This document shows positions 24,226 to 64,000 of a stretch of DNA of 64,000 nucleotides, piece after piece. A program made the position numbers and the translations under genes. The notes beneath the pieces are model-generated. The model saw only the letters and a list, made by a program, of their open reading frames with translations, was not told the origin of the DNA and searched no databases. Position 1 is the first letter of the stretch. Each line of letters begins with the position of its first letter. The stretch is from Isurus oxyrinchus. Taxonomy: Eukaryota. Location: NCBI GenBank assembly GCA_026770705.1, contig JANJGN010000010.1, positions 39,680,001-39,744,000 of the forward strand. Reading direction: 5' to 3'.

Positions 24226-24529
24226 CTGCAATAATTGAGACCAAAGTTATCAGTATATAAAATTAATCTAACAGTGGGCCAAAAAGTCAAAATGAGGACT
24301 TATTCAATTGTTATAAATCAGTGGCTCTAAAGTTATTCCTTTCATCGCGTAAGCACGAATATCATCATAGAACAGTGTATCCTTTGACCTACTAAACAAC
24401 TCCATTGGGAGGTTTCCTAACATTTTGACAAAGATGCTATGGAAATGATATGGATCTTTATTATTTAGTCTTGCACATAACATTCACGAGTGAAATTCTT
24501 CCTGTCACTTCAGCCATTCTAACATCATC

Positions 24530-25530
24530 TTGCATTCATGTAACACCTTCAAAACAGGATAACATCCCAAGTGTTTCACAAAAAGCGCAGTCAAAATTTA
24601 ACACCAAAACAAAAGGAGATATTTGATGGGTTGACTGAAAGCTTGGTCAAAAGAAGTAGGTTTTAATGAGATATTTAAAAGGAGGACAAAAAGCTGAAGG
24701 GGTTTCAGTGCAGGAAGGAAATTTTAGAGGCATGGGCCTAAAGAACGGAAGATTCAGCTGCCAATGGTGGGACAAACGGAGTTGGGGCTGCACAAGGCCA
24801 AAATTGGAGGGACACAGAGTTAACTAAGAGTTTTGAGTTACAGAGTTGAGGAGGGGTGAGGCTATGAAGGATTTGAATGATTGAGAATTTTAAATTAGAG
24901 GTTTTGGGGAGTCAAGAACAAAACTAGGTCAGTGAGCATAAGGCTAACTAGTTACCAGGATTTAGTAGCAGTTGGATGATGGGTAGCAGATCTTTCAATG
25001 AGCTGAAGTTTATAGTTGGTGGAAAATGAAAAGCAGGGAAGGGGTGCTTTTAGAATAGTTGAGTCTGGGAGTTGACAAAACCATGGTTGAGGCTTTTCAT
25101 GAGGCCCAGGTAGAGACATGGAATATTATAAATGTGGAAGTAGGCAGTCTTTGACATGGAACAAAATAGGATCAGAAACTCAGCTCAGGGTCAAATAAGA
25201 TATTGCAATTTTGAACAGTCTGTTTCAACCTGAAACAGGAGCTGTAAAGAATTTGCAACTGAGATAAAGGTACCTCTACGTGAGTCTGTGGAAGGGGCAT
25301 TGGTTTTACTGATGTCCAACTTGAACAAACTGCAGTCTATCCCTGACTTGGACTAGTTGTGAGAAAACATGCTGATAGGGGCAGTGGAGGAGTTCAGACA
25401 GGTAGTGATGTTGAGCTGGGTGTCATCAGTGGTACATGTAGACAAAGACTGTCTTCAGATGGCATCACCTAGGCAACATTTAGAGGAGGAAAAGGTTGAG
25501 CCAAGAATAGATCGAGTAACTCCAGAGGTA
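24530..25530 (-). mobile_element. Degenerate L2-like LINE
   Basis: The reverse strand contains YxDDTQL-like and G..LGS RT remnants plus an L2-type tail. Confidence 0.55.
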
Positions 25531-26159
25531 ATGCTGCACAGATATCATACTTTAACATATTTATGATACATTTTGAGCAATGATTCATGGTGGCACATAT
25601 TTGGTAAAATACAAAGGTGCTTAAATGCTAAAGGTAGTTGCTTTCCCCAAAGACAAGACATTAAGCAATTAATTAGCTTGTCTCAAAATTCAATAAATAT
25701 TTGGCAAGAATTGCACTTGGGAGTCTCAGGTCCAGGGCGCTTGACAAAGGAACTGTAGGCTTTCCTTTCCAGCTACTCATGGAAAAGAAAAAATAGAGAC
25801 AATGACACATGAATCTAGTTCAGTAGAGGCTGCAGGGTGAAACATTGGAGTGGAGTATTTGATTTTTCTTAAGCCAAGAGAAATGATGTAGTGATGTGGG
25901 GTAAAATAGTGCATTCATTATTTTGTTTTACACAAAAACAAGTTGCATGGATTGAACCAACTGAATGTGATACCTGTCCTATGTTTATTTCTATAAAATA
26001 AAGTAACTTAACAATTTACATTTATCATCTGACCTATTGTTTGCTTCCATCCCTCTGAAGATGGACTGAATGTATGTACAAACATGATTATCAAGTCATA
26101 GAAGGGTACCTATGCCAAATCCCTGTCTCATGCAATCGTATGGTTAGATACTGAGCGCA

Positions 26160-28977: not shown

Positions 28978-29219
28978 CATAAACATAAGACACTCAGATG
29001 ACTTAAATTGAGCTTGTAAACTCAGAGCTGTAAGTTTCAAGTTCTGTAAAGGAATTTCAAGGATCTAAATTCTAGATTAAGGAACAGAAGTGCCAGAGTT
29101 GTAATTCCTCGATTACTCCTTGTGCCATACACTAGACCAGACAGACAATGAAACATTTTGATTGTCATTGTGTGGCTGGGGGGAAGGTTTTCAGATTTCT
29201 TTGACATGATGCTTCAATT

Positions 29220-29760
29220 GTAGAGCCTTGGTCAAAACCAATACGGGTTACTGCGTTCAGTTTTGAGCACTGAATCTTGGAAAATATAAATTGACTTTGG
29301 ACGGGGTGCAGCACAGATTGTCAGAATGATAGCAAGACAAAGGGTGAAATTATGAGGTTTGGTTGTATAAACCTGGCTTGTATTCTCTTGAATTTAAAAG
29401 GCTGGGGTAATCTAATTAAGGTGTTAAAATGGTAAAGTTTCAATAGGGTAGATGCTACTGCTTTTCTATTGGGCAAATCCAGAACAAGGGAGCATAATCT
29501 TAAAATTAGAACTAAGCCGTTCAAAGGGAAATCAGGAAGCACTCCTTCACACAAAATGTAGCAGAAGTCTGGAACATACACTCCTCCAAAAAGCTATTGG
29601 AGCTCAGCCAATTGAAAATGTCAAAACTGAAATTGAGACTTTTGTTAGACAAGGATATTAGGGTCACTGCACCGACATGCAGCTAAGATCCAAACTAGCC
29701 ATGATCTGACTGAATAGTGAAATAGGCTCAAGGGGCTATTTCCCATTCCTATGTTCCAAA
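29220..29760 (+). mobile_element. Degenerate CR1 3' fragment
   Basis: YRALV..YCVQF remnant and CR1 tail. Confidence 0.65.
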
Positions 29761-30110
29761 AAGTGTATAGCAACAGATCCGCACCTGATGAAAGTTTTAC
29801 TTGATTGGAAGTGAAACAATATCAGCACAGCATTGCCTGGTGAAATTGGGAACTTTCACAAGCAGTACTAGTGCAGAGTCTCACCGGGCTATGTAGTTTG
29901 GAGAGAAAAAATAAGGATGAGAAAATTAAAAAGCAACAGAGGAAAGATCTTCAGAAAATTCATCAACTTGGTTGCCTTCCATCTTTAAGCCCCTGTGCTG
30001 AAGTAGGCTGCTATGTTAGCTGATGTCACTTAGTACAACCACTGGGGCACCTCACAGCTTCCAGTCCTCACCCAGGCAGCAAAGGAGGGAAACCAGATAC
30101 GACTTCTGGA

Positions 30111-32079
30111 ACAAAAACAGAATTACCTGGAAAAAACTCAGTAGGTCTGGCAGCATCGGCGGAGAAGAGTTGACGTTTCGAGTCCTCATGACCCTTCGAC
30201 AGAACTTGAGTTCGAGTCCAAGAAAGAATTGAAATATAAGCTGGTTTAAGGTGTGTGTGTGGGGGGCGGAGAGATAGAGAGAGAGAGGTGGGGGGGTGTG
30301 GTAGTAGGGACAAACAAACAGTGATAGAAGCAGATCATCAAAAGATGCCAACGACAATAGTACAATAGAACACATAGGTGTTAAAGTTAAAGTTGGTGAT
30401 ATTATCTAAACGAATGTGCTAATTAAGAATGGATGGTAGGGCACTCAAGGTATAGCTCTAGTGGGGTTTTTTTTTTATATATAATGGAAATAGGTGGGAA
30501 AAGGAAAATCTTTATAATTTATTGGAAAAAAAAGAAAGGGGGAAACAGAAAGGGGGTGGGGATGGGGGAGGGAGCTCACGACCTAAAGTTGTTGAATTCA
30601 ATATTCAGTCCGGATGGCTGTAAAGTGCCTAGTCAGAAGATGAGGTGTTGTTCCTCCAGTTTGCGTTGGGCTTCACTGGAACAATGCAGCAAGCCAAGGA
30701 CAGACATGTGGGCAAGAGAGCAGGGTGGAGTGTTAAAATGGCAAGCGACAGCGAGGTTTGGGTCATTCTTGTGGACAGACCACAGGTGTTCAGCAAAGCG
30801 GTCGCCCAGTTTACGTTTGGTCTCTCCAATGTAGAGGAGACCACATTGGGAGCAACGAATGCAGTAGACTAAGTTGGGGGAAATGCAAGTGAAATGCTGC
30901 TTCACTTGAAAGGAGTGTTTGGGTCCTTGGACGGTGAGGAGAGAGGAAGTGAAGGGGCAGGTGTTGCATTTTTTGCGTGGGCATGGGGTGGTGCCATAGG
31001 AGGGGGTTGAGGAGTAGGGGGTGATGGAGGAGTGGACCAGGGTGTCCCGGACATCTTCCCTTCACCCCCCTTATCGGCACTCCGTAGGGATCGCTCCCTC
31101 CGGGACACCCTGGTCCACTCCTCCATCACCCCCTACTCCTCAACCCCCTCCTAAGGCACCACCCCATGCCCACGCAAAAGATGCAACATCTGCCCCTTCA
31201 CTTCCTCTCTCCTCACCGTCCAAGGACCCAAACACTCCTTTCAAGTGAAGCAGCATTTCACTTGCATTTCCCCCAACTTAGTCTACTGCATTCGTTGCTC
31301 CCAATGTGGTCTCCTCTACATTGGAGAAACCAAACGTAAACTGGGCGACCGCTTTGCAGAACACCTGTGGTCTGTCCGCAAGAATGACCCAAACCTCCCT
31401 GTCGCTTGCCATTTTAACACTCCACCCTGCTCTCTTGCCCACATGTCTGTCCTTGGCTTGCTGCATTGTTCCAGTGAAGCCCAACGCAAACTGGAGGAAC
31501 AACACCTCATCTTCCGACTAGGCACTTTACAGCCATCCAGACTGAATATTGAATTCAACAACTTTAGGTCGTGAGCTCCCTCCCCCATCCCCACCCCCTT
31601 TCTGTTTCCCCCTTTCTTTTTTTTCCAATAAATTATAAAGATTTTCCTTTTCCCACCTATTTCCATTACATATATTAAAAAAAAACCACTAGAGCTATAC
31701 CTTGAGTGCCCTACCATCCATTCTTAGTTAGCACATTCGTTTAGATAATATCACCAACTTTAACACCTATGTGTTCTATTGTACTATTGTCGTTGACATC
31801 TTTTGATGATCTGCTTCTATCACTGTTTGTTTATCCCTACAACCACAGCCCCCCCCCCACCTCTCTCTCTCTCTCTATCTCTCCGCCCCCCACACACACA
31901 CCTTAAACCAGCTTATATTTCAACTCTTTCATGGACTCGAACTCAAGTTCTGTCCAAGGGTCATGAGGACTCAAAACGTCAACTCTTTTCTTCTCCGCCG
32001 ATGCTGCCAGACCTGCTGAGTTTTTCCAGGTAATTCTGTTTTTGTTTTGGATTTCCAGCATCCACAGTTTTTTTGTTTT
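30111..32079. mobile_element. Penelope-like element, inverted duplication encoding the GIY-YIG endonuclease C-terminus, with 13-bp TSD
   Basis: Arms 30111-31051 (-) and 31099-32045 (+). FTCISPNLVYCIRCSQCGLLYIGETKRKLGDRFAEHL. TSD tacgacttctgga at 30098-30110 and 32080-32092. Confidence 0.9.
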
Positions 32080-32428
32080 TACGACTTCTGGATACTACTC
32101 ATCTGTCAAACAGCCCCTGGACAGTCAATGTTTAAGCACAGTAACAAAATATATTGTTTTAATGCATACAATTTCAACTAAAGTTATTTTAGTAACAAAA
32201 TAAAAGTGAAAGTCAGGAATAATTCATGTACATTTTTTTTAATCGCATTAACTTCTGCTTTGCAACCCAATCCCCAAAAGGAACATCAGTAACAGACGAG
32301 AGAGGGTTGGCTCTGCTCCAATATCATTTTAAACCCGGGAAAATCCGCAGCCAAAGTACAAACCCAGCCTGAAGCCGGCCCGATTAGCGCTCCGCCCGCT
32401 CACTGCCACCGCCCGTCCCGTCCTTTAC

Positions 32429-32504
32429 CTGAAAGCGGTGCCAGAGTCACCAGCGCGACCACGACCTGTATCAGGAACGGCAACGAGTTCTCGGCCCAGC
32501 CCAT
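32429..32504 (-). CDS. NCR3LG1: Gene A exon 1, signal peptide MGWAENSLPFLIQVVVALVTLAPLS
   Basis: Strong Kozak GGGGCCATGG, hydrophobic core, donor TCAG|gtaaag, 76 nt (phase 1), inside a CpG-rich island. Confidence 0.85.
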
Positions 32505-45670: not shown

Positions 45671-47827
45671 TGTTTGAATCGCTGTTGCATAAATGCAATG
45701 TCAATTGTTTATTTTAAAACTGAAATTGATAGAATTTGTTAACTAGTGTATTAAAGAATATGGGACAAATTAAGACAGGCACATGGAGTTAGGTTGTAGA
45801 TCAGCCATTAAGTGGTGAAACAGGCTTGACGGCCTAAACAGCTGACTATTGTTCCTCGAACTCTGCCACACTTTGCACTGTTCCAAGGTATTTGAAGTCC
45901 ATGCACACATTCTGCAGTTTCCAACCCCTCGGTACTTAATGTTTCACTCAATGTTGCCACACTCCAATCCAGTGACATCTATCCTCAGCATAACACATCC
46001 AGATACTTAATTGTATCACTTCTCCCTATCCTGTCCGTCTCATTGGTCCAAACCCTTCTATGATCAAGAACTGTGAAATAGTATGGTCTGTAGTCCAAAA
46101 TCTCTAAACATTTGAATCCTTTTTAAGCACATCACCTCTCTAGAGTGGTCAGAGGCAATTGTATCCTTGCCCCTATTGATCCCAGGCCTTACTGTGCAGA
46201 CCTATCCATGTGCTGCCAAATCTAACCCACACTCAAAAGTCTTCCCAGACTCTTTACTGCAATCCCAAAGAATACCCTCACTCCGAGAGATAGTAATTAA
46301 AATTGCGATAATGGGGAAAGAAAGAACTATGCAATGATAGAAGCAAGTCAAAAATATCAGAGCAATACAGCCTTCAAAGGATTGGGAAAGTGAATGAACA
46401 TGGACAGGAGGTAGAAGCAACTTCCACTGTGACCTTTTAATTTAGATTCCAGGAACCTGCTATCATAACCAACTGACAGCTTTGTGTTGTTAAGCCCAAT
46501 GACCATAAACCAAAGCTGACATCCATATGCAGTTTAATATATTTGTGGCCAAGTCCAAGGAAAAAAGATTTAGTGGCGTAAGTTCTGAAAACCAGGTCAT
46601 GGATCCCAGAATCCAAATTAAAGACCAATATAAATGGCTCTATAGACAGGAGGGAGTGGGGAGAAAGTAGCAATTGTTGCGAGAATGCTTTTTTCTTCTT
46701 CTTGAGCAATGCCACAGGAAAGCCATAATAAATCATGTGCCATGCGTAGGACACTAGTGACTAGGAAACGGAATGGGCTTGAAATTCATTGCTGTAGCAC
46801 CACTTTCAGTAGTGCCTACCTCTGTTTCCAGGGGCACAAAGCACCGCTTGCAGATCCCTGCATGACCCTTGAGGTGTTGCTGGAGAATAAGAGTGCAAGC
46901 TGATGCATCCCATGTGTGTGCTGGAAGACGTTAATTTGACACTATTCTTATGTTAAACATCTCAACCAGCTGATGTAACAACAGGATCCCAAATTTGGAC
47001 ACAGAATATGCAGACAGCATCTGTGTTTACATATGACAAAAGAAGTATGAAGCTGCAAAATGAGCCCGGCAGTTGCATTATTTAAGAAGTCAGGTATCCT
47101 GAATGAGGCAAGTATGAGGCTGGCAGCATTGGTAGGTGTGTGAAGGGCACGTTGAATACCTATATGAATATTTGGTATGAGTCCTAAATTTCAGGGATTA
47201 CTATTGAGTAAGTGATGGTGTATTGATTGGCATGAGAAGTTGATGGTGGGTAGCCAGAGGATATCACGTGAAAATGTATTCATTGATGTTGACCACCTGA
47301 ATGAGATCATTAGACCTCTTATAGCACTATTACTAGGTCCACGGGTCCAAACTCCACTCATGCTGCTAGCACCAAATCCATCACTATGAATTCCTCCGTC
47401 TGTCCTGGTGTTTACTTTGCAATAACGTATACTGCAGCAAGTCTTCTGTGCAGGCTCCCTTTGAGGTATTGATTGTCTTTAACAGCAGCAAGCTGGCTGT
47501 ACTATTTTGTCTACAAATCAATGCTGCTAGGGCCTACTGCTCCACACACAGCTCACTGGCAGTACTCAAGAGCAGACAACAGTGCTGGGGGTGCTCTAGA
47601 TAGTGTAGTTCAGATAACTTGGGAACAAGAATTTTGAAGATTGCCCACGTCGATCAGAATGGGTATAGGCAGGTCATGAATCACCAGCAGCCTGCCCAAA
47701 AACTGGGTTATCCAGCTTCTAGCTCAGTATCTTCCAACTTCACCTTAAGCAGCAATACAAGATCATCTAGTAGTTTGTGAAAGTCTTAGGAGCAAACCAT
47801 GCATGTTTAAACCAATAATACAAAATC

Positions 47828-47983
47828 TTTATTAGCTGCTTATTCCTATATCACAAAAGGAACAAAGATTTATAGCACAGTAGGTGATCGTGCCCATGCC
47901 AGCCAAATTTTGCAACTTCAAGCTTTAGCAAATTTTCACTTCAAATGACACATATCTGTCTTTTTGACCAACATCAATTTATT
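47828..47983 (-). terminator. Candidate polyadenylation signals of gene B (AATAAA at 47978-47983 and 47828-47833)
   Basis: TTTATT on the + strand about 1.1-1.2 kb past the stop, after an AT-rich, repeat-poor, 3'UTR-like stretch. Confidence 0.3.
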
Positions 47984-49033
47984 GCTAAAAGCAAGCTGTT
48001 AAATTAGTATTTTAGCTATTCTGTTCTACTTCTCCATTTTGGTGCACATCAAAATATATAAAAAGTATTTAAAACATTTGATTACTAAAATAGAATTACA
48101 TTTGCTGTTCATTCAAATGCAGAAATAGGTATACACCAAAAGAGATACAAATGCATTTTTTTTAAAAAGAAGGTAAAGATTTAAGTAAAGCATGAATATA
48201 CAGTGAAATTCTTGGCAGTTAAATATCACAAGGGTACTAAAAATCCCAAATAATTTGTTTGTAATAAATTTTAATAAAACAATAAATCTCAATTAAAAAC
48301 CTTTGAGCTATGAGACCATATCTGCTAAAGGTCTGTTTGTCAACTACCAGTCTTATAATTGCACTTTTGAGGTTACAAAAAGAAACTGAAAAAAGAAATG
48401 CTGCCACAGGATAAAGGAATGAATGAAGCAGCAATAGTCATTCCCACAACTGTGGCTGATCTTCTGCCTCAACTTTACTTTCCGGCAAGTTCTCGATATC
48501 CTGACTCCATGAAAGACCAAAAATCAATCAATGAAGCAAGCTATCCTAGCACTATCCTAGTGGCAACACTGAAGGAGATAACACCACATTCTCTTTTTCT
48601 CTTCTCACTTCTTTCTTACCCAACACACACTGTGTAACAAAGTGTAGAGATCATTTTAGCAGCCACTCCTTGTCCTTCACAGTATAATATAACCCTCTTT
48701 CATTCAGTTATTCTGTTTTCACAGAGTGGCTTTGAAGGTCTGTCCTCAAAACTCATTCTTTCAGTTTCCAAATACAGTATCTAATTAATGGCTTTTCTTC
48801 ATGTATTTCATCATTCATTCATTCATTGATAAATGTATTAATGATTAGAAAATTGAGACGATAATGAATAAATATAAAAATAAAACTGATATTGGCCATA
48901 CACCATTTCAGTCACCCATGGGAAACATTTTAATGCATTATACATGACGTGAGGTCAAAACAAGGAAGCTGTTTCCATTTTTCACATCAAATCACAATGC
49001 ATTGCTACAGTTTCCAGAAAAAGCCACACCAAC

Positions 49034-49338
49034 TCAACTTAATTTCAGCTTGAAATATCTGCTAATTGGGTCCATCTCAGTGATGACATCAACTTGCAGC
49101 TGACAGTTGTGATCTTCTTGCTTTGGTATATAAGTTAGAGTTGTGGTGAATCCTGTACCAGATTGAAGTGGTGTGTTTGCAATGCAGCTTACATCGTAAA
49201 AAGGGTAAGCATCTCTGAACCAAGTGATGTGAGATTCTTCTATGGTGGCTCCTTCAATCGTGCAGGAAACTGTTACGGGCTGGCCAGCTTTAGGATAGTT
49301 TGTTTGGCAAGTTATCTGTGACACCTTCGGAAAATCAT
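49034..49338 (-). CDS. Gene B terminal exon, divergent C1-like Ig domain ending at the stop
   Basis: ttccaacag|AT acceptor. FPKV..VTVSCTIEG..ITWFRD..FTTTLTYIP..KLKLS*, with TGA at 49034-49036 and no good donor nearby. Confidence 0.8.
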
Positions 49339-50759
49339 CTGTTGGAATAAAATTTGAAATAAATAAAAATCTTGATAACATTAAAAAAATATAGATTTTA
49401 CTATATTAAAAAAAAAACACAAGGAAAGTTGGTAGTTCTAGCAGCAGAGCTCTGCAATCCTACACTCAGGGCCTTTTCATCTTAATCCCAACTGCTTCTG
49501 ACATTCTACAAGAAATGAGCCATTTTATTAAGAATCACCAAATCCTTGCATAAATCATGAGCCTTGATGTCCAAGGAGAGAATAAAAAGATGACAGCAAT
49601 CAGAGAGTATCTAGCCATCCTTTTGTCTCAATTAATTGGACACGGAGTTGAAAGAATAATGAAGATGGAGTCATAGAAGAGAGAAGAAACAAAAATATTC
49701 AAGAATGAGATAAGAAGGAATTCTGTTCTTCAAACTGGGAACTTTGAGTGCGAGATTAAAGTTCTATATATACCCTAATCCTAGTTAAATAGTTAAAAAC
49801 CAAATTATTACAACTTATTCATTTGTGGGCAAAAAATTGTGTGTTACAAATCAAAGCAGGCATGTTTCCAACATCGGAGATTTTACTAAATTTGATACAA
49901 TTATGGAACATAAGCAAACGTTGGGAACTGACAAATGGGGAGTCACAGGAAATATGCAGGGCAGTTAGCATGACATCAACTATTAAGCACACAGTCACCC
50001 CATGCCACAAAAAGCTTAAAAACCTTGAGCAGCAGCTCAGGTAAGATACAAGGAGCCAGCCAATAATGCACAATCTACCATTTATCCAAAGTTTTCACTA
50101 ACTGTATTAAAATGCTTGAATAACTTACCACAGGAACACAGACACAGGAGTAAACCACTTAGTACTTGGTTTTAATGTTGGAATCATGCTACGATAGTGC
50201 ATGCTTTAGTTTGTAATTGAGAGCAGCTGCCACCAATTGGGGAAAGATTAGGGAATTATTCCAAGTGTATAAAAAACAACTTATATTGGGTTTAGGGGAG
50301 TAATAAAGAACTCTATGCTTACATCCTGTGGTCTTGTGAATAAACCTGGATTAAGGAAAAGAGTGGCTTCAGATTCATCCTTCCCTCAATGTATGAACTT
50401 AACATAAAAACAGAGAATGAACATTGATCTCTGGTGATTGGACGTTGAATATGAGTTTTTATTTTGCCTGCATCCTATGAAAAAAATAAATTTATGACTC
50501 CTGGCAACCTTTGGTGCAAAATGGCTGAGGCCTGATGCAAATTCTCAATTTGATTATTTACTCATTTTTTTCAGCGTCTGGACTCTATGGCAGTGGAAAA
50601 ATAAGGCGGAATTATGGACATGGGTTATCTTGTTCTCCTGGAGGAAGCAAAGTATGACTTTGGCTTTCTTATTACCATGAAAAAGAAAGATTAGGAATGT
50701 AGTATTTTTGGAACTGGATATGAGTTACTTGGAGACTGAAGAACGATCAAATCTCTTCT

Positions 50760-53700
50760 GTTATGAGGATATGAATTAGGAGCAGGAATAGGCCACTTGG
50801 CCCTTTAAGCATGCTCTGTCATGCAGGAATGTGGAATTGAGGTTATAATGAGATCACGGTTGATCTGATTATAACCTCAATTCCACATTCCTGCCCACCC
50901 AGTTAAAACCTTTCACCCCCTTACTTATCAAGCTTCTACCTACCTCTGCCATTGAATATTCAAAGACTCTACTTCCACCACCTTTTGTGGAAGAGAATTT
51001 CAAAGATTCACAACCCTCAAAAAAATTCTCATGTGTCACAGAATTGTAACAACAAAAAAGGAGGCCATTCAGCCCATCATGTTTGCACTGATTTCCAAAT
51101 GAGCATAATAACCTAGTGCCATTGCCCTGCCTTTTCCCCTGCACATTGTTTCCATTCAAATAATCATCTAATTCCCTCCTGATTGCCTTGATTGAACCTG
51201 CCTCCACCACACTTCCACGCTGTGCATTCCAGACAAAAACCACTCATTGTGCGAAGAAGCTTTTTCTCACATCAGATTTGCTTCTTTTGCAAATCACTTC
51301 AAATCTGTGCCCTCACATTCTTGATCCTTTTATGAGTGGCAACAGCTTCTCCATATCTACTCTGTCCAGCCCCTTCATGATTTTGAACATCTTTATCAAA
51401 TCTCCTCTTAGCCGTCTTTTCTCCAAGGAGAACAGTCCCAACCTCTCCAATCTATCTTTGTAACTGAAGTTTCTCATCCCCGGAATCATTCTTGAAAACC
51501 TTTTCTACACTCTCTCTAATATGTTCACATCCTTCCTATAAGTGGTGCCCAAAATACTTCAGCTAGGTCTAACAAGTGTTTTATATAAATTCAGCATAAG
51601 CTCATTGCTCTTGTACTCTATGCCCATATTATTAAAGCCCAGGATACTATATGTTTTATTAACTGCTCTCTTCACCTGTCCTTCCACTTTCAATGATCTA
51701 TGTACATATACACCCAGATCTTTCTGCTCCTGCACCCCCTTCAAAATTTCACCCTTTATTTTATATTGTCTGTCCATGTTTTTCCTACCAAAATGCATCA
51801 CCTCACACTTCTCCGCATTGAACTTCATCTGCTACCTAGCTGCCCACTCCACCAACTTGTCTCTGTGCTTTGAAGTTCTGCACTGTCCTCGCAGTTTACA
51901 ACACTCCCAAGCTTTGTATCATCCACAAACTTTGAAACTGTCCCATGCACACCAAGATCTAATTCACTGGTATATATCAGGAAAAGCAAAGGTCCCAATA
52001 CCGACCACTGGGTAACTCCATTACAAACCTTCCTCCAGCCCGAAAAAAATCCTGAATATCCTGAATAGATGACCACTTATTTTCTGAACAGTGGCCCCTA
52101 GTACAAGATTCTCCCACAAGAGGAAACACCGTCACCACATCGACCCTGTCAAGACCCCTCAGGATGTTTTGTTTTTCAATCAAGTTGCCTCTTACTCTTC
52201 TAAACTCCAGCAAATACAAGCCTAACCTGTCCAACCTTTCCTCATGAGACACCAACCCATTCTAGGAATTAGTTGAGCAAACCTTCTCTGAACTGCTTCC
52301 AAAGCATTTATGTCCTCCCTTAAATAAGGAGACCAATACTGTACACAGTGCTCCAGTTGTGGTCTCACCAATACCCTGTACAACTGAAGCATAATCTCCC
52401 TACCTTTGCATTCCAATTCCCCTTGCAATAAACTGTAACATTCTATTAATTTTCCTATTTACTTGCTGTAGCTGCATATTAGTCTTTTGTGATTCATGCA
52501 CTAGGACCCCTAGATCGCTCTGCAATCTTTCAACATTTGGATAATATGCTTTTTTATTTTTCTGCCAAAATGGACAATTTCACACTTTCCAACATTTTAT
52601 TCCATTCCATTTGCCAGGTCTTTGCCTGCTTACTTAACATATCTATATCCCTTTGCCGTTTCCTTGTATCCTCTTCACATCTTGCTATCCTATCTATTTT
52701 TGTGTCATCAGCAAATTTAGCAACCATATCTTCGGCCCATTCATCCAAGTGATTTATATAAATTGTAAAAAGTCGAGGCACCAGCAATGATCCCTCTGCC
52801 ACACCACTCATTGCATCCAGCCAACTAGAAAAAAAAACTGATTTATGCCTACCTTCTGTTTCCTGTTAGCTAGCCAATCTTCTATCTGCTCCACACCATA
52901 AGCTTTTATTTTTCACAATAACATTGAAAGTGGCACTTTATCAAATGCCTTCTGGAAATCTAAATACAGTATGTCCTCCGGTTCCCCTTTTTTCGCAGTG
53001 TATGTTACTTTATCAAAGGACTCCAATAAGCTGGTTAAACATGGTTTGCTTGTCACAAAACCATGTTGACTCTGCCTGATTACCCTGAGTTTATCGAAAT
53101 ACCCTGCTATAACATCTTTAATAATTGCTTCTAAGATTTTCCCTAAGACAGATGTTAAGCCTGTAGTTCCAGGTTTTCTGTCTCCCTTTTTGAATAAAGG
53201 AGTTACATTTGCTATTTTCCAATCTAATTGAAGTTTTCGTGAATTTAGGGGATATTGGAAAATTAAAACCAACGCATCAACTATCTCACTAGCCACTTCT
53301 TTTAAGACCCTAGAATGAAGTCCATCAGAACCGGGGGACTTTCGGTCTGCAGCACTAACAGTTTTCACAGTGCCACTATCCTAGTGATTGTAATTTCCTC
53401 TCTCCTTTCCATTTCCCGATTTACAGCTATTTCTGGGATGGTACTTATATCCTCCGTGGTGAAGACCAATACAAAATACCAGTTCAGTTCATCTGCCAGC
53501 TCCTTATTTTCCATCATTAATTCACCAGACTCTTTTTCTATGGAATCAACACTCACTTTGTTAACCATTAACTCTTTTCTTTATTAAATTTCTATAGAAA
53601 CTCTGACTATCTGTCTTTATATTTCTAGCTAGCTTTCTCTCATCTTCTAATTTTTCCTTCCTTTTCAACCTTTTGGTCATTCTTTGCTATTTTTTTATAT

Positions 53701-55580
53701 TCTGTCCACTCTTCTGACCTGCCATCCACCTTTGCTCAATTATATGATTTATCTTTAAGTTTGGTGACTATCTTTAACTTTTTTAGGTAACCATTGATAG
53801 AGTCCTCCCCTTGGAATTATTCTCTCATTGGAATATATCTATTCTGTAAATTCTGAAATATCCTCTTAAATATCTGTCACTACATCTATATTGACCTATT
53901 CCTTCATCTAATTTGCCAGTTCACTTGAGCTAGCTGTGCTTTCATGCCCTCATAACTTCCCTTATTTAAGTTTAAAATATTAGCCTTGGATCCAGTCTTC
54001 TCTCCCTCAAACTGAATGTAAAATTCAATATTATGATTGTTACTACCTTGGGGCACCTTCAATATGAAGTCATTAATTAATCTGATCATGTTGCAAAATA
54101 CCAGCTTTAGTATAGTTGGCTCTTTGGTTGGCGCCAGAATGTGCTGTTCTAAGAAATTATCCCGAAAACATTCTCTAACTTCCTCATCTAGGCTACCTTT
54201 ACCTATCTGATTTTCCCAGTCTATATGCAGATTAAATTCCACTATGATTATTGTCATTTCTTTCTGATAACCTCCCATTATTTCTTCCTTTATACCCCAT
54301 TCTACTGTGTGGTTACTGTTAGGGGGCCTGTACTCCACTCCCACATGTAACTTCTTGCCTTTATCATTTTTCATCTTTACGCAGATCATTTATACATCCT
54401 GAACTCCTGGACTTAGGTCATGCCTCTCTATTGTGCTAATAGCATCATTATTAAACAGAGCCGCCCCTTCACCTTTTCCTAGCTTCCTGTCCCTCCTAAA
54501 TGTCACATACCTTCAATATTCAGATCCCAATCTATATAATCCTTCTATAATGTCTCTGTAATGGGTTTCAGATCGTACTTATTTATTTCTATTTGCGCTC
54601 TCAGTTCATCTGTTTTGCTTCAAATGCCAAGTGCATTCAGATACAGAGCCTTTAGTTTTGTCCTTTTACTATTTTTGTAACCTCTAGCCTTATCGGCTGA
54701 CTTACTCCTAGATTTGTACTCTATGTACTCTCTGTACCTTCTTGTTATGGTCTGGTTATCATTTCTCACATTAATACCTTTCTCTCATCTTTTCTCTGCA
54801 CTTTGATTTACCATATCTTGCCAAATTTGATCCTTTGATCCTGCTATTTAGTTTAAAGACCTCTCTACTTCCCTAGTTATGAGGCTTGCTAGAACACTGG
54901 TCCCAGCACTGTTCTGGTGCAGACCCTCCCAACGGAAAAACCCCACTTTCCCCAATACTGGTGCCAACACCCCATGACCTGGAACCCACTTCTCTCACAC
55001 GTCTTTGAGCCACATATTCATCTCTCTAATTTTATTTATCCTATGACAATTTGCATGTGGCTCAGGTAATAATCCAGAGATTATTACCTTTTGAGGTTCT
55101 GCTTTTTAATTTGGTGCCTAGCTCCTCATACTGTCTATGCAGAACCTCTTTCCTAGTTCTACCCATGTTGTTGGTACCTCAACGGACCACAATTACTAGA
55201 TCCTCCCCATCCCACTGCAAGTTCCTCTCCAGCCCTCAGTGCATATCCAAACCTTGGCAACGAGCAGGCAATGCAGCTGTCTGGATTCTTGCTCTTTGCT
55301 ATAGAGAACAATGTCAATCCCTCTTACTATACTGTCACCTACTACCACTACATTCCATTTTGCTTCCCCCACTTGCATGGCTTCCTGTACCCCGGCGCCA
55401 TGGTCAGTTTGTTCATCCACCCTTCAGCCCCCTCACTCATCCAAACAAGCCAAGAGAGCCTCAAACCTATTGGACAATTGCAAAGGCCGAGATTCCTCCC
55501 CTCTGGGTTCCCTTACCTGCCTCGCTCACAGTCATCCCAACCTGTCCCTGACCAAATCAGAAGACCCTATCCTAAGTGGT
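50760..55580 (-). mobile_element. Near full-length CR1 LINE (ORF1 esterase plus APE-RT) with a second CR1 (about 51035-52055) nested inside
   Basis: ORF1 VVVVGDSIVRGID, APE GVEYRPPNS, RT YLDFQKAFDKVP and KFADDTK; two CR1 tails. Confidence 0.85.
50823..50894. repeat. Hairpin with 34-bp arms (1 mismatch, 4-nt loop)
   Basis: gcaggaatgtggaattgaggttataatgagatca-cggt-tgatctgattataacctcaattccacattcctgc. Confidence 0.9.
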
Positions 55581-58097
55581 GTGATTTGGACAGGCTTTAC
55601 AAGAAAGATGATTTGCTGGAAGCTGATGAAGTGTAGCCAACTTTTGATGTCAGTCAGTCCATGGAAGAGTATATTATGGACTTTGATAGGTGGTACAAGA
55701 GACTGACAAAGTTTGACCTAGAAATGATGGAGTCTGTGCTTACATTCAAGTTACTGGATTGTGCACAGATTTCACACATAGATCGACTTCTGGTATCTTG
55801 GGGGTTCAGTTTCATGGAAAAACTCTCTTAGACCAAATGTCTGCTGCCCTGAAAAAAATTTTGGGAAAGCAGACTTTCCAAATACTTTCAAAGCAAATAC
55901 AGGCAACAGTCTGACTAGACTACACAGTAAAATGGAGAATGCAGAACCATCATGACACAATAGTAGAAGCAGAATTATATATGACCAAGAAGGTTTTATA
56001 ACAGAGAACAAATTAGGAAATAAAACTATACAGGAGACTTAACAGAGAGAGAGCGCGAGTTTGGCGTGTAGTCAGAGGTCCCAAATAGGGGTCAGCCAAC
56101 ACTATTGCATTATCTACATCGAAAACGTCCTATCAGATGGAGCTTAAAGCCAAGGCTAGGTTAGTAGCCTGATGTTTTGAAGAATGTTTAGCAGATAGAG
56201 CTCAGAGTGGACTCGACCACAGCAGGAAAGGTAATGCTCTTTTTGCAATGTTTACTTGGGAATGCAGGGGATCACCTCCAGGGGGATGTTTTCAAACCTC
56301 CTCAGGAGGCACCAGATGTAGAGGGAAAATTTTGGAAGCATTGTTCAAATAGATACACTTATTTAAATACCATAGATACACTAATTTAACTTACAGAGTA
56401 CCATGGTGGAAAAGAAAGAACCATGGTGTGAGAGAGAGCGAGAAATTGTTTCGCCAAAAGGAACACTTCTAATGAGAAATTATTAGGAGTATTATAAGAG
56501 GGCCAATTAAAGATGTGAGTCTTAAATGTGAGTTATGTCTTCAGTTGATTTTGTCTACAAAAAATGCATTTAAGTTTCTTTAAGAAAGGAATCTGTTAAT
56601 GTTGGAATCATGCTACAATGGAGTGCATGCTTTCTTGTAATTGAGAGCAGCTGCCACCAATTGGGGTAAGATTAGGGAATTATTCCGAGTGTATAAAAAG
56701 CTTTTTGTACCAGGAATAGGGGAAGATACATGCTCTCCTGCAAACTGCTCAGTTTCCAACATAAAAAGAGGAAAGGATGCAGGCGGGCCAAATTTCTCAG
56801 GCAGCCTACAACAGATCCACCTTAGAACTGTTCTGCCTTCAGGAAACTGTTCATACTGGCATAAAATCCAGCCTACTCACACCACCTTGTTACTTAGATG
56901 GCACCTAGGAAAACCGCTAAAACTGTGGTTGCATTGAAGTTGCATGTACAGACATTGTCCATGGCAAAATTTGAAAAGGGATTTGATTAGATGGCACGAA
57001 GAAAAACTATTAGTTAACGCATTCAGCAAAAAGTTGTGGGGTAAAATGCGCACAAGAGGGTTGTGCAATGACCAGATGTGGTAGATATGAGAGCCTCTTG
57101 CCTCAATATAGCAGAAATATGTTCTGCATGAGGGAAATGGTTGTGCTCTATTTCATCCTCAAGCCTCTGCTGCTGTTCCTTCTCTTCCTCAAGTAAATGC
57201 AGAAAAGGTCATCTCATTCCGTATCCTCAAGTGTGGATTACTATTGGGGAGATGTCATGGGCTTCCAGTGCAACCTCACCAACCCAATTTCCTTTCCCGT
57301 CCAGGGAGCATACTGACGTAGAAATCTATGTTATGTCTTAGCTGAAGGTAGGGGCTCATGGTGAAATGGCAGAGAGTGAAGCATTAGGAACAGCAAACAA
57401 AAATACTAAATTACTGAAGAAATAAGGATTTTGCAAGGCCTTAATTATGTGTTTGGTCTTTCAAATATGTTTTTGTCTTTTCCCCAGCATCCTAGTATTG
57501 TCCAATAGTGCCCATTGTATATGGGCATCTTTAGAACTCAATGTAAATAAGGCAGTAATGATGGAAAATGGGATGCAGGATGTGGTCATATTATTATGGC
57601 CTTATTTTAAAAGGATTACCCATTTAGGGTGGATACTTCTGCCATAAACAGACCTAAAAAGGAATATCTGGGTTATTCTGTATAATAAACTGAAATGACA
57701 CGTTGACATCACTACGGATTACATCAAACACACACAAAACAGGAACTTCTCAAAATCTTCACTTTACCTTCACCACTGTGTATGTTTTCATAAAGCACAT
57801 CTTCATCTTTAACACCTGAACATAGAAACAACCTAGTTAAATTCAACACTGGTCAAATTAAATTAAGACTTACAACGTTAGAGTATTAAGTAACTCTCCA
57901 ATGGTATTGCAACAAAATGAAGTCACCAAAATTAACTATTCTCAGCGGTGAAAAAACATTGTTTATTGAATATAAAGTTTCAATGTCAAATACACATTCA
58001 AATGCATGCTTCGAGCTCAACAAAAACATCAACTTTACAATGACAATTGTAATGAAATGCTTTGTTCCAAATCCAACTCCAATAAAACAACACTCAC

Positions 58098-58409
58098 CTT
58101 TAAGGGATAATATGAATTTTTCCTCCTGAATTTCTTTTGTTGCTAAGTGAAGCACCGAACATCTGATCAAACTCGCATGATCCTTCTCAGCTACAATAAA
58201 TGTTAAGCTTGACTCTGATGAAAAAAGACCATCATCAGCAATCTTAGGCAGACTGTTAGTCACTCCTGTACAAGGTGCCCCATTTTTAAACCACTTTACT
58301 TGCACAGCAGCAGGAGCATAGTTTGTCAATGAGCTACTGAATGTGATAGGCTGATTAACTTCAGGCAGTTTTGGATCAACTTTAATTGGAGACAAGGTAG
58401 GAGAATAAG
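58098..58409 (-). CDS. Gene B internal exon, C1-like Ig domain (B-strand Cys replaced by Ser)
   Basis: ctttcag|CT acceptor, G|gtgagt donor, 312 nt. ITFSSSLTNYAP..WFKNG..DGLFSSESSL..IRCSVLH. Confidence 0.85.
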
Positions 58410-58674
58410 CTGAAAGACAAATAAAAAGGTTCATGAATGTTTAGTTATTGAAGCCAGCTGATTAATTTCTGAATATAAAAAGAAAATAAAGGGTGCTTTT
58501 CTAGTCTGAATTATACACAAATTTATGAAAGAAAATTTAAGATCTCATGAGTTTGCTCAAAAGTTACTATTAGAATTTTTCTAATATTTTCTATAGACAA
58601 ACAACTTACATAGTTACAGAAAAGACTTTTTGAAAACAGCACTGATCTTAAAGTGAAGATGGTGCTGGTGTATT

Positions 58675-58790
58675 TTTTTATTCATTCACGGGCTGTGGGC
58701 TTCGCTGGCTGGGCCAGCATTTATTGCCCATCCCTAGTTGCCCTTGAGAAGCTGGTGGTGAGCTGCCCTCTTGAGCCGCTGCAGTCCATT
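58675..58790 (-). mobile_element. LINE family 2 3' end fragment
   Basis: Family tail sequence. Confidence 0.7.
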
Positions 58791-59424
58791 GGTTTACTAC
58801 ATTAAAGCAGCATGTAGTAACAGATACTTTGACAAATGGATATCAAAGGGACGTCCCAAAAATGGTCACTGAATTAATGGTCAGGCAGGAAGTAGTGTCA
58901 GACAGAAGGGAAATAAAACAAATTCAAAAATCATAATTATAGTAATTTGATCCAAACCCTATTAGGATGATTAGGATAATAAAAGTTAAATATTTTTAGC
59001 AAACCGAAGAACTGATGTCTTCAGGTAAGAAAAGCTTCCGAACTAGTGAGAATTAGCTCCAATAAATGAAATTACTTTAAAAGATACATTTATTTGGAAT
59101 CTGTTTTTACAGTGAATATAATGATCTTAAATCAAATATCCTTCCTTTAAGTAACTTCAATTGAAGTTTTCCTTCTCCAATTTATCGAATTTCAATTTGC
59201 TCACAATCATTTAATGTGAAATGACTCCTAAATGTGTCTCCCCATAAGCATCTCCCCTCCCCCATCACCACCACCCAGCACATTGCACTACCTCTAGTAT
59301 CTAGTCAAATTCTTCCAGGTTATTTCTGGGTGACCTAGTGAAGTATATTCACTTAATCACAAATATTTAAATATGAAGTGGAACTTTTCAAACTTGTGGA
59401 GAGAAGCATCAGGGTAAAACCTAC

Positions 59425-59736
59425 CTTGAAGTGTTAGAACTGTCTGCTTTGTAACTGGAGTTTTTAAATTAACATGCTCCACACGGAAGGAAAATTCTTC
59501 TTCAAAATCTAGTGCAGTTGGAGTTACTTGCAATCGGGAAGTCAACCGATAAGTTCTATTGTTCTCCATCACAGGTCCTTTAACCGTAATCCCTTCGACT
59601 ATCCGGTTTCCATTTTTTAGCCAAGCTGTATCAATGGCTTGTGGGTAAAAGTTAGTGACGTTGCAGATCAAAGCAAGATCTCTACCATACGTGGCTTCTG
59701 GTGGGTCAAGTTTGATATCTTCAACAGATGGAACTC
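59425..59736 (-). CDS. Gene B internal exon, C1-like Ig domain (F-strand Cys lost)
   Basis: ttttacag|GA acceptor, G|gtaggt donor, 312 nt. LICNVTNFYPQAIDTAWLKNG..NRTYRLTSRL..FSFRVEH. Confidence 0.85.
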
Positions 59737-60179
59737 CTGTAAAAGTTGCATGAATCCACAGTTGATTACTCTACCAAATAGCCATCATGTTGAAGGATCA
59801 AAAAGGAGATTCAAAAGATCTATCTTTTCCCCCCAAATGTTGAATGTTTAAACAAGGGCAGTCATCAAATCTTTCATTGTGCAAGTTAGACCTTTATCAA
59901 AGATAACGACAACTTAAAAAACCCTTTACCTTACAGAACATTTATGCTACTGATTTGATAATCACAGCCATGTTGGAATAGCACAATTTAGGGCCAATGC
60001 AGCCACAGAAAGGAACTTGGAGGTCACAGACAAACAAGGAATGTAATGTGAGGTGGCACTGTTCCTGAAGGTTAGGCTGATCTCAAAGAGGTAGCACAAG
60101 CCTGTGGCTCCAATGGCAAAGTTATCATCATCCCCAAAATAAAAGCAATGCTAGCATCCTGTTAGAAATAGCTATGTAG

Positions 60180-60525
60180 GGAGAGGAGGTGTCATAGTGG
60201 TATTGTCACTAGACTAGTATTCCAAAGACCCAGGGTAATGCTCTGGGGACTCGGGTTCAAATTCCACCATGGCAGATGATGAAATTGGAATTCAATAAAA
60301 ATCTGCAACTAAAAGTTTGATGATGACCACCATGAAACCATTGCTGATTGTTGTAAAAACCCATCTGGTTCACTAATGCCTTTTAGAGAAAGTATTTTCT
60401 GCTTTCCTTGCCTGGTTTGGCCTACATGTCACTCCAGACCCAGAGCAATGTGGTTGACTCTTAAATGCCCTCTGAACAAGGGCAACTAGAGATGGGCAAT
60501 AAATGCTGAACGGAAAATAAAAAAT
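60180..60525 (+). mobile_element. tRNA-derived SINE sharing both ends with LINE family 2
   Basis: A box tgtcatagtgg (60190-60200), B box ggttcaaattcc (60254-60265), and LINE-type tail gatgggcaataaatgctg. Confidence 0.8.
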
Positions 60526-61119
60526 GTTTTTGGCCACTAATAGAGTACATATTTGAAGACCTTACAGCTGCATGTAAAGTTTTATTTAATGCAAGCTTAT
60601 TGCACTGCAGAACTGATTCAGGAGTCATTCCAGTTACGTTAGTGTAATATTTGTAAAACCAAGTTGATTCTCAACAATTATTGCTATGCCATCAACTTAG
60701 TCCAGGCTTGTCCAACCTGTGGCCCCTGGGCCGCACTGCAGTCTGCGAAGACCCCCAATGTGGCCCCCGGAACGACTGTTGAAAATGCCAGCTCAGTACA
60801 TTTGAAGATTTCTTCAGGAGCCTGCTCCTCCTATCAAAGCCTGCTTTTCTCCTGCGTTTGCTGCTGATAGGCAACAGCAAGTATTTGAAGATAGAGAGAC
60901 ACACTTTGGAGCACATGTTCACCACGCTTTCCCCAGGCTATTGGTGCTTTAGCCCAGCTCCGTTCCTCTGGCTCTCCCCCAGTACTCCCTGCATCCCACC
61001 AGTTCTCCCCTGGCCCTCCACATTTGGGCACCGCTAGGCCTCAGACTTTGCTCCAGCTCATATCACACCTACCCCTGCCACCAAGCCAAGTTCATGAGTG
61101 ATGGTAAGTGAGCATAAGG

Positions 61120-61480
61120 GTGAGTCAGCGAGTGAGTGAGGGAGTGAGTGCAGATGAGTGTGTGTTTGTGGTTGAGTGTGTATGTGTGCATGCCCACACG
61201 CGAGACAGAGGGGGAGCGCACACGCGAGAGGGAGCGCACATGGGAGCGAGGGAGGGAGGGGGAGCGCGCGCGCAAGGGAGGGGGAGCGCGTGTGCGAGGG
61301 AGGGAGGGGGACCATGCGTGCGCCAGAGGGAGGGGGAGTGCACGTGCGCGAGGGAGGTGGGAGGGGGAGCGCACGCCAGAGGGAGGGGGAGCGCCGCAAG
61401 AGGGAGAGAAAGGGTGACAGAAAGGGTGAGCGCACGTGCCTGCGCATGAGCGAGAGAGAGCGAGAGAGGGGGGGACAGGG
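61120..61480. repeat. G/A-rich, CpG-rich imperfect tandem repeat (gaggggggagcgcacgcgc-like units), possibly inside a hAT-like element starting near 60703
   Basis: Low-complexity repeated units; ccaggcttgtccaacctgtggccc resembles a hAT terminus. Confidence 0.7.
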
Positions 61481-61737
61481 CTGATAAGGAGCAGACAGTG
61501 TGTGTCTGGCTCCCAGCTGCAGGGTTCTCATTCACCCTCACCTCCGCCCACCAACTGGCACTCTCACAGGGGATGAAGGTGAATGAGTGAGCACCCTGAG
61601 ACTCGGAGACTGAGTCGCTTCTATTAAAACATGTCATTTTAATGAATTGGAAACATATCTGGCCGTTTCCAAATAACCTATTCAATATTCTACAATTGTT
61701 ACTGTGAAGTTGCACTTCTTGTTGAAATGAGACTTAC

Positions 61738-62058
61738 CCATTATTTTCAAAATATGACTGGATGAGACAGGTTTGTTTGAAGTTGCAGAGTGAAGGATTT
61801 GCATTTTGAACTCTTTTCCATGGTCCTGATAAGTTGGAATGAATGTCCTTTTGGACCATTGATAGTACGAATCAGTTGTTTTATCAAACTGGACTTCAGA
61901 TGTTTCAACTCCATCCATGGTTTTAACAAACCCTTCGAACCAGAATATTTGATTGTCTTTTGGAAAGAAGCTGTGTGCTTTGCAGGAAAGTTGTACAGAT
62001 TTTCCCACTTCTGGGTGTACAGGATCTGCTGTAACTTCTGTTACCTTTGGCATTGACA
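61738..62058 (-). CDS. Gene B internal exon, C1-like Ig domain (F-strand Cys lost)
   Basis: gtgcag|TG acceptor, G|gtaagt donor, 321 nt. QLSCKAHSFFP..FWF..EFKMQILHSA. Confidence 0.85.
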
Positions 62059-62489
62059 CTGCACACAATCAACATAAACAGTGTTAATAAGACTGCATAA
62101 CTGAAAGAACACCAAAATATTTTAAAAAGACTAGTGCATCTTGACAAATTGTCAAACATCAATTTCTTCAATAAAAAGTATCCTTTTTCTCTGCCGCTGT
62201 TTTTCCTCGCACCCTGTTACAGGCCACAATTGCTCCCATATCTCTCGGAAATTTCCACTCACTGTCTGTGAGATTGAACATTGAATACTCGGAGGCTATT
62301 CAAGCCTAGCCTTGCATTCAACAGGGAATCATTAGAAAGTGATAATTCATCAAGTCCATGGAAGCGGGGGTGGGGGTTTTGGGGGGGGGGGTGGCCCAAG
62401 GCAGATTGTAGCACTCCACCAATACCTCAGCTGGGATCAGATAACTCAGGGATTGGACTTGTAACCTTACAGTTTTAAATCACTAGTTA

Positions 62490-62885
62490 AGCCCCAGTTG
62501 GAGTATTGCATTCAATTCTGGGCACCATACAGTGGGAAGGATGTTTAGGGGCACGGGCGAGATTTACCATAGTGGCACCAGGGATTGAGAGGTTTCCATT
62601 ATGTGGAGGGGCTGGAGAAGCTGCAACTGTTCTGCTCAGAACACAGAAGGTTAAGAAAGGATTTGACAAAAGGTGTTTACAGTCATGAGCTGCCTTAGGG
62701 TGTCGTGGAGGCAGAATCAATCGTGGCTTTCAAAAATGAATTGAAAAATTATCTGAAGATAAAAAAAATTGGAGGACTAATGGAAAAGATGGGGGAGTGA
62801 GAATAGCTGAGTTGCCCCAGCAGAAACCGGCACAGACATGACAGGCTGAATGGCCTCCCTGCTGGAGCCATTCTATGGTTCTACT
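62490..62885 (+). mobile_element. Degenerate CR1 3' fragment
   Basis: PQLEYCIQFWAPY remnant and CR1 tail. Confidence 0.65.
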
Positions 62886-63019
62886 TCTCAGTTGTTCAGG
62901 CCGAAGTTGGGTGACATGTTCTCCCAATGGGCTAACAGAGAGCTGCAAACAATCCTTTCCAACACCATTCACCTTGGTTCACTTGTACTACCTTTTGCCT
63001 CTGAAGAAGGCCTAGTTTC

Positions 63020-63320
63020 TACTGCTGCTCCAGGACTTGAAGTAATTTGCAGTGTTAGGTCAGCACAATACAAAAACAGTACTGCAGCACTGAAAGCAGC
63101 TGGATCCACCTCTTCAGGTGGACATAAAAGATCTCATTGAACTTTTTCCAAGAGTAAGGGATTCTCCTGGGCTAGCCAACATTTCACCCTCAAACAAACT
63201 CAGCAAAAAAACAAATTAACAGGTTGTTCCTCACATCGTTGTTGGTGGGACACTGCTTTGTACAAATTGCCCTGTTTGCCTACAAAACCACAGACAACAT
63301 TCCAAAAAGAATTCATTAAC
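63020..63320 (+). mobile_element. DeuSINE-like fragment
   Basis: tcaggtggacataaaagatctcattg..ggctagccaacatttcaccctcaa resembles the Deu core. Confidence 0.55.
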
Positions 63321-63334
63321 ATCATGGAATCGTC

Positions 63335-64000
63335 CCAGATTTCCACTAAGTGGGGTAAAAGGCAGGTAAAATGTCAATTTACCTGCCATTGTGGCTGGTG
63401 GGTTTTCACGCCATATCTTCCCAAACTTGCCACACTATTGACGCATTCCCGGGAAACACGTAGTTTCCATGGCAGGAAAGCTCTCATTCACCCACCTGCC
63501 ATCACCTCGCCACTTTGTCACGCCAGGAGTCATATTTAAAGTCCAGCCATGCGCACACATCTCAGTGCTTCCAGCCCATGACTGCTGCAGAGAAGATGTC
63601 CCCGAGCCCCCAGGTTTAGCGGTGTTTCACTGGAATGCCTTTTGAATGCTGTGGAGTCCCACCAGGATGTCCTCTAACCCTGCTCTGTCCGCAAGATGGG
63701 CAGCAGAGTGATCTACCTGGTTGGGAGGCGGTGGCAGTAATGCTCAGCTTTCAAAAGAGGATAAACATTCAGTGCCTCAAGAGGGTGAATGATCTCCTTG
63801 GTTCTGCCAGGGTAAGTCACTCTTTTCATCACTCTCAACTCACACACACACAAATCCATCTCACATCCACAGGGATCTCACTCACTGATAGTTCAAGGGA
63901 CATCACCATTCAATCTCTCGCACTCACCGTCATTGTCCTCATCCCATCCATGGGACCACTCACCACCCACACTGGCATACTTATCATCTGGCCTGACAAG
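63335..64000 (+). mobile_element. Harbinger left end with Myb/SANT exon remnant
   Basis: PRFSGVSLECLLNAVESHQDVL..W..VA..QC.KRVNDL followed by a gtaagt donor. The intron sequence matches 36225-36320. Confidence 0.65.

Follow-up and report, generated by a model that had tools for sequence, protein, structure and literature searches.

What kind of protein ends in a long string of immunoglobulin (Ig) domains, and on which side of the membrane does that string lie? The question is raised by two minus-strand genes, here called A and B, in a 64,000-nucleotide (nt) stretch of the Isurus oxyrinchus genome (assembly GCA_026770705.1, 4.98 Gb; contig JANJGN010000010.1, positions 39,680,001 to 39,744,000), which we refer to as the window and in which a preliminary description, made from the letters alone, had placed Ig exons of gene B at 49034..62058. 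Positions are those of the window, extended past both of its ends, with signed values counted from its first base. C1-type Ig domains, the fold of the constant regions of antibodies, T-cell receptors and major histocompatibility complex (MHC) proteins, are known from textbooks as modules of adaptive immunity that are disulfide-bonded and lie outside the cell. We conclude with considerable confidence that gene B is a spliced shark B7-H6 gene (NCR3LG1) whose product comprises a signal peptide, a V and a C1 domain, one transmembrane (TM) segment and seven further Ig domains, likely a surface ligand, with the tail predicted to form a cytosolic docking rod. The gene itself is not new, as it is the orthologue of a deposited shark B7H6; its significance lies in the tail, a C1-set array that is likely cytosolic and whose domain order is preserved from sharks to lizards. 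Literature titles and abstract openings yielded no description of this Ig tail, which does not in itself show absence from print.

Exon structure and identity of gene B

Four Ig exons of gene B lie in the window on the minus strand, all in phase 1 and with AG/GT ends, and the preliminary observation of Ig exons there is correct. Exon 8 (61738..62058) encodes tail domain d4, a C1-set domain in which the F-strand Cys is replaced by Met and the counterpart of exon 8 of gene A; exons 9 (59425..59736) and 10 (58098..58409) encode the C1-set domains d5, with the F-strand Cys changed to Phe, and d6, with the B-strand Cys changed to Ser; and the coding part of exon 12 (49034..49338) encodes d7, a divergent Ig sandwich with a single Cys and a TGA stop directly after its last strand. 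A further exon of 48 nt (exon 11, 57768..57815) had been missed and was recognised by comparison with the white shark orthologue; it encodes an acidic linker with the tyrosine motif VLYENI, which we take to be ITIM-like (immunoreceptor tyrosine-based inhibitory motif) or of the YxN type. Scanned singly against Pfam, d4, d5 and d6 score 28.2, 55.9 and 34.8 bits with the C1-set profile (cut-off 21 bits), and d7 fails this cut-off, its best match being Ig_3 at 19.7 bits (cut-off 30 bits). The 3' untranslated region (UTR) spans 47806..49033, with AATAAA at 47833 and the longest contig ending at 47806. In this terminal region (48169-49105), contigs of two runs that show 0-1 differences over d4-d6 show 14-15 over the last exon and 3' UTR, which may be an allele, a conversion or an assembly effect.

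Upstream of exon 8, the 3' part of intron 7 (62059..64000) reaches the window end, past which, on the same strand, lie exons for d3 (74157-73846), d2 (74855-74475), d1 (75550-75113), the TM segment (77575-77459; 117 nt, phase 1-1), the C1 domain (80722-80396), the V domain (84425-84087) and the signal peptide (94456-94345). The possibility that the 5' flank might reveal an unrelated secreted protein is thus not borne out. A CpG-rich stretch at +92 kb, considered as a first exon, was rejected owing to a reading frame resembling that of a long interspersed nuclear element. Altogether gene B has 12 exons with phase-1 junctions and encodes 1107 amino acids (aa) without an internal stop, approximately 810 aa of which lie behind the TM segment as Ig domains.

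Most of these junctions, among them that of the TM exon to the tail, are supported by assembled contigs from four runs examined of 21 listed (three studies, two organisms), whose status as RNA is a guess, none being on record as such. Canonical joints were found between C1 and TM (3/4 runs), TM and d1 (4/4) and d1 and d2 (3/4), with one contig covering C1-TM-d1; for d2-d3, three of the four runs show a joint whose cut is displaced by a few bases. Further along, d4-d5 is joined in all four runs, d5-d6 in three, and the 48-nt exon is spliced to both d6 and d7 in all four. The d3-d4 link comes from a 935-nt contig of one run, with matching offsets in both mappings, and the signal peptide-V and V-C1 joints are based on orthologue alignment.

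The gene B product shares 94.5% identity with white shark XP_041053099.1 and, over its full length (1099 columns), 57% with nurse shark QTT61906.1, deposited as 'B7H6'. A protein search with d4 of gene B gave 9 proteins out of 16 candidates, each of them from a shark and one being QTT61906.1; with d4 of gene A it gave 11 out of 31, and one cluster contains QTT61907.1, also named B7H6. By sequence comparison, gene B is the orthologue of QTT61906.1 and gene A that of QTT61907.1. In line with these names, and with the preliminary proposal of a B7-H6 identity, human B7-H6 is the top PDB match for the V domains of both genes and for the white shark orthologue of gene B, with an E-value of 2.5e-34 (next protein, 6e-22). 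An AlphaFold2 model of this orthologue (37-row alignment; mean predicted local distance difference test score 83, predicted TM-score 0.39) has nine beta-sandwich domains, a helix at residues 273-296 and a low-confidence, likely disordered linker at 995-1010. The modelled ectodomain superimposes on B7-H6 structures at 2.0-2.2 Å (TM-score 0.88-0.91), and whole-chain structure matches place generic Ig strings on top with poor root-mean-square deviation. Judged by PDB matches and by fold (TM-score 0.91), gene B is nearer to B7-H6 than to other B7, butyrophilin or tapasin-like proteins.

As defined in the part of PMC6514059 that we drew on, B7-H6 is a type I protein with a distal IgV and a proximal IgC domain, and its Ig exons are flanked by phase-1 introns according to the accessible text of PMC2715080; gene B shows both the layout and the exon borders. 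Of the 11 human NKp30-contact residues listed in the available portion of PMC3135353, six are identical in gene B, including Thr127, Pro128 and Lys130 (alignment read by eye).

Side, age and role of the immunoglobulin tail

The gene B product has a single hydrophobic peak of TM strength after its signal peptide, with basic residues behind it, and from this combination we infer that a type I topology with a cytosolic tail is very probable. The preliminary description was right that the stop directly follows the last Ig domain; its statement that the protein has no signalling tail does not hold, since the TM segment lies upstream and the whole Ig array, with its acidic tyrosine-motif exon, follows it. 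Across 27 aligned proteins (24 hand-picked named homologues plus genes A, B and C), the canonical Cys pair is kept in 27/27 V and 27/27 C1 domains and in 0/27 d1, 0/27 d4, 3/22 d5, 1/20 d6 and 3/13 d7 domains; in the tail of gene B it is complete in d2 and d3 alone of the seven. N-glycosylation sequons in these proteins number 60 against 43 expected before the TM segment and 99 against 102 after it. The scarcity of Cys pairs in five of the seven tail domains and the lack of a sequon surplus behind the membrane both favour a cytosolic position. Constraint on the tail is similar to that on the ectodomain, d1 excepted, with identities of 56-79% for d2-d7 and 58-72% for the ectodomain across six non-lamniform sharks; 91 positions of the tail reach 90% conservation or more, and its domains keep their order from sharks to lizards. 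The tyrosine motif has a narrower distribution, occurring in 9 of 44 linkers before d7, all from shark gene-B orthologues of six species, and not in those of Scyliorhinus canicula, rays or bony vertebrates. A Heptranchias isoform carries it twice, and some species have lost it; searches for the tyrosine exon after d4 of gene A or in gene C, a third gene of the cluster, gave best scores of 27 and 25 versus 72 for gene B. By these comparisons, the tyrosine linker is an addition of shark gene B.

With the nurse shark protein as query, a single-sequence HMMER search gave 1713 representatives at E ≤0.001. Among the best 150, 79 have the order C1-TM-Ig, seven have V-C1-Ig without a TM segment and 64 are otherwise; ten that were looked up include skate, electric ray, lungfish, bichir, frogs, caecilian and lizard. 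A search with a lizard tail gave 32 matches from squamates, turtles, coelacanth, newts and Xenopus, with no bird, crocodilian or mammal among them, which is weak evidence of absence. A 78-domain tree was built from 11 selected proteins (111 columns, hence of limited resolution; position labels taken from a full-length alignment), and in it seven of the eight position labels, namely C1, d1-d5 and d7, each form one group. Because domains of the same tail position fall together whether they come from sharks, lungfish, bichir or amphibians, the d1-d7 tail is likely ancestral to jawed vertebrates and would predate the split of cartilaginous and bony fishes. At d1, d2, d3 and d5, gene C is grouped with a caecilian protein (98/88 at d2, with lower support at the other three), and this pairing suggests a second B7-H6 lineage that is also older than this split. 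By tblastn, no viral relatives of d5 were found in viral contigs. Certain unnamed proteins of 1000-1750 aa (P0101, P0125, P0127, P0142 and similar) have a V-Ig(-Ig)-TM arrangement followed by many Ig domains and are possibly a second family with Ig arrays behind the TM segment.

The same tree bears on the relationship between genes A and B, whose domains cluster by position and form separate shark clades that are sisters at d4 (99/83); the two d4 domains are also reciprocal best matches among 23 domains (72 bits, 35%, E 1e-21). Together with deposited orthologues of each gene, this agrees with the earlier view of an old duplication with both copies intact. The signature that had been said to unite the two domains is specific, as its three patterns match d4 of gene B and exon 8 of gene A and no other translated exon of genes A, B and C; the first pattern does not match as it was written, two of its gaps each being one residue longer. 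A shared multi-C1 tail holds for d4; d5, d6 and d7 are not found in gene A of this species. The tree would place the A/B split before that of sharks and rays, with gene A apparently losing d5-d6 later in this lineage.

We propose that gene B, as a surface ligand, would present V-C1 to NKp30-type receptors, and its V domain probably binds a receptor of the NCR3/NKp30 family. Since its constraint, except in d1, is similar to that of the ectodomain, we read the tail as a rod-like scaffold: its seven domains would form a cytosolic rod on which signalling and trafficking partners dock, setting surface display and sending a reverse signal into the cell, in shark gene B partly via phosphorylation of the exposed VLYENI tyrosine. 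This role for the tail is tentative, and we give it somewhat less than an even chance.

Several observations weigh against these interpretations. Both canonical Cys residues of d2 and d3 are retained in 26/26 proteins, which is unexpected in a reducing compartment, and the 27 proteins are related, so that the Cys counts do not represent independent events. For gene A of white and basking shark, the NCBI models contain an isoform that skips exactly the TM exon, and in seven of the best 150 representatives, which read V-C-tail, no TM segment was found. Five of the 11 NKp30-contact residues differ from human; d6 does not form one group in the tree, requiring two changes and with d6 of gene C placed apart; the tyrosine motif, present in 9/44 linkers alone, cannot explain the tail in general; and the runs that support splicing are available as contigs and only guessed to be RNA.

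Some of these points would be accommodated if the tail were mainly extracellular: skipping of the TM exon, which at 117 nt and phase 1-1 preserves the frame, would yield a secreted V-C1-(Ig)n decoy for NKp30, with the cytosolic form a by-product. The TM-less gene A isoforms of the two lamniform sharks and the Cys pairs of d2 and d3 fit this scheme, as does a link between soluble human B7-H6 and impaired natural killer (NK) cell function mentioned in the part of PMC6514059 consulted. We nonetheless regard it as unlikely, because the TM-d1 joint of gene B is present in all four runs, no TM-skipping joint is among the 15 joints listed (a further 176 fall outside this list), five of the seven tail domains mostly lack the Cys pair, sequons are not enriched behind the TM segment, and C1-TM-Ig arrangements outnumber those without an intervening TM segment by 79 to 7.

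Alternatively, the tail might retain the protein in the endoplasmic reticulum or Golgi, making it a tapasin/TAPBPR-type chaperone or a stored stress ligand and not a constitutive surface ligand. Gene B ends in KLKLS, which fits the KxKxx retrieval pattern, and 10 of 11 gene-B entries have Lys at -3; TAPBPR also appears among the PDB matches, though less strongly (E 2e-13), and NCR3LG1 is placed in a cluster with TAPBP/TAPBPL in the accessible portion of PMC13262535. These terminal lysines, however, lie in or right behind the last d7 strand, some 800 residues from the membrane, the PDB match to B7-H6 scores far above that to TAPBPR, and genes A and C have different C-terminal endings. Tapasin and TAPBPR moreover carry an N-terminal MHC-editing domain ahead of V-C1, and gene B has no such domain, its V exon directly following the signal-peptide exon, leaving retention, in our estimate, slightly less probable than a secreted decoy. 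A third reading, in which the tail is just a passive spacer or a relic and lacks specific partners, would suit its variable domain number (four in gene A here versus six in its nurse shark orthologue), a lizard protein without d2-d3, the d1-only repeats of gene D in the same cluster, and human B7-H6, which activates NK cells with an unrelated Gag-like tail according to the available part of PMC2715080. It is hard to reconcile with a tail as conserved as the ectodomain, down to 91 near-invariant positions and a stable domain order from sharks to lizards, and we consider it highly improbable.

Returning to the cytosolic scaffold, its wider history can be sketched only speculatively. The first jawed vertebrates may have had at least two B7-H6 lineages acting as two-way receptors, with up to seven C1-type domains as a disulfide-free cytosolic rod, TM-exon skipping providing a secreted decoy, and the human lineage later replacing the rod by a retroviral Gag piece with similar tyrosine motifs; we hold this scenario as a whole to be doubtful.

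Gene A and the gene cluster

Gene A encodes 781 aa, and its exons in the window (3306..32504, minus strand) are those for the signal peptide (32504-32429), V (24225-23863), C1 (22610-22290), TM (16682-16566), d1 (14672-14238), d2 (10415-10038), d3 (8995-8684) and d4 (exon 8, 3629-3306). Gene B ends 16,530 bp upstream of the gene A ATG on the same strand, as had been described. The end of gene B had been offered as a guide to that of gene A, and in this it misled: gene A stops after d4, its fourth tail domain, with a last coding exon of 20 nt on the minus strand at about -4.4 kb, before the window's first base, and white shark has the same ending. No further Ig exon of gene A was found between d4 and gene C by tblastn or position-specific hidden Markov models, and d5, d6 and d7 of gene B therefore have no partner in gene A. 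Gene A orthologues of Heptranchias, Rhincodon, Pristiophorus, Mobula and nurse shark retain d5-d6.

The suggestion of a local family of tandem paralogues is borne out by a cluster of about ten minus-strand V-C1 units, whose Ig exons, in 1.23 Mb scanned, all lie between -67 kb and +615 kb; 12 of 13 genome-wide matches to the V exon of gene B fall inside it. With four tail domains in gene A, six in gene C (980 aa) and seven in gene B, the cluster holds a natural deletion series. Broken copies A' and B' derive from a duplication of about 90 kb (88-95% identity), in which the A+B block was apparently duplicated once more, the new copy then decaying. The remaining members are gene D, one broken unit and three V-C1 units in which hardly any Ig tail, or none at all, was detected.

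Gene D (+193 to +302 kb; contig approximately 39.87-39.98 Mb) has, behind V-C1, a tandem series of d1-only exons set in repeat units of 14 kb, several of them frameshifted; in a model from Heterodontus there are seven d1 repeats, all intact. The TM exon of A' (+109684-109800) is identical to that of gene A (16566-16682) at 117/117 positions, and other A' exons are 89-94% identical. The signal-peptide exons of genes A and C agree at 76/76 positions within a 295-bp block of 93.6% identity (32363-32652; -36121 to -36414), and their V domains are 30% identical; we take exon 1, and perhaps the promoter with it, to have been copied or converted recently. Just inside the first intron of gene A, at 30110-32081, a young repeat that we take to resemble Penelope occurs as two inverted copies (about 95% to others elsewhere in the region). 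The cluster also contains a 105-kb tandem array of units of about 1748 bp (+479.5 to +584.6 kb), one 10-kb piece of which had no Rfam match, and an exon at about -191 kb presumably resembles the C-terminus of IFITM/dispanin.

Beyond the cluster lie nucleobindin exons (+723-732 kb, about 110 kb past the last V exon), PIK3C2A (+881-959 kb) and RPS13 (+1075 kb). The PDB match of the nucleobindin is NUCB1, and its assignment to NUCB2 follows from the neighbouring genes. The PF00792 profile found no PIK3C2A on the contig, which an open reading frame scan with PDB search did find, and a Pfam scan of six neighbour-gene exons gave no match. We take the neighbours of human NCR3LG1 to be NUCB2, PIK3C2A, RPS13 and also KCNJ11, the last presumably a matter of local order and not family-defining. 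Expected synteny is accordingly present on the nucleobindin side; KCNJ11 is not an immediate neighbour here, as KCNJ11-like and MyoD-family genes lie on the same contig approximately 14 and 16 Mb off.

Comparison with known systems

Nurse shark QTT61906.1 has the organisation of gene B, from signal peptide, V, C1 and TM through d1 to d6, tyrosine linker and d7, and nurse shark gene A (QTT61907.1, 980 aa) keeps the d5-d6 that gene A of I. oxyrinchus does not. Long NCR3LG1 models of squamates, turtles, amphibians, lungfish, coelacanth and bichir are alike in having V-C1-TM followed by position-matched Ig domains; they differ in single domains lost or added, and no tyrosine linker motif was found in them. 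Human B7-H6 shares with gene B the V-C1 ectodomain (34% identity, superimposing as above), the FG-loop VTPxK, phase-1 introns and chromosomal neighbours. The shark genes stand in a cluster, unlike human NCR3LG1, which we assume to be single-copy. As described in the accessible text of PMC2715080, the human protein has 454 aa and a Gag-homologous cytoplasmic domain where gene B has seven beta-sandwich domains, and the human tail carries an ITIM with its tyrosine as well as SH2- and SH3-binding motifs, which for the shark tyrosine linker can be viewed as a functional parallel only. Given a tail order preserved from sharks to lizards, the human Gag-like tail is the derived state. Among type I proteins, integrin beta-4 likewise has a cytoplasmic beta-sandwich chain of about 1000 aa that serves as a scaffold and bears phosphotyrosine sites; its domains are of the fibronectin III type and those of gene B of the Ig C1 type, and we draw an analogy without claiming homology.

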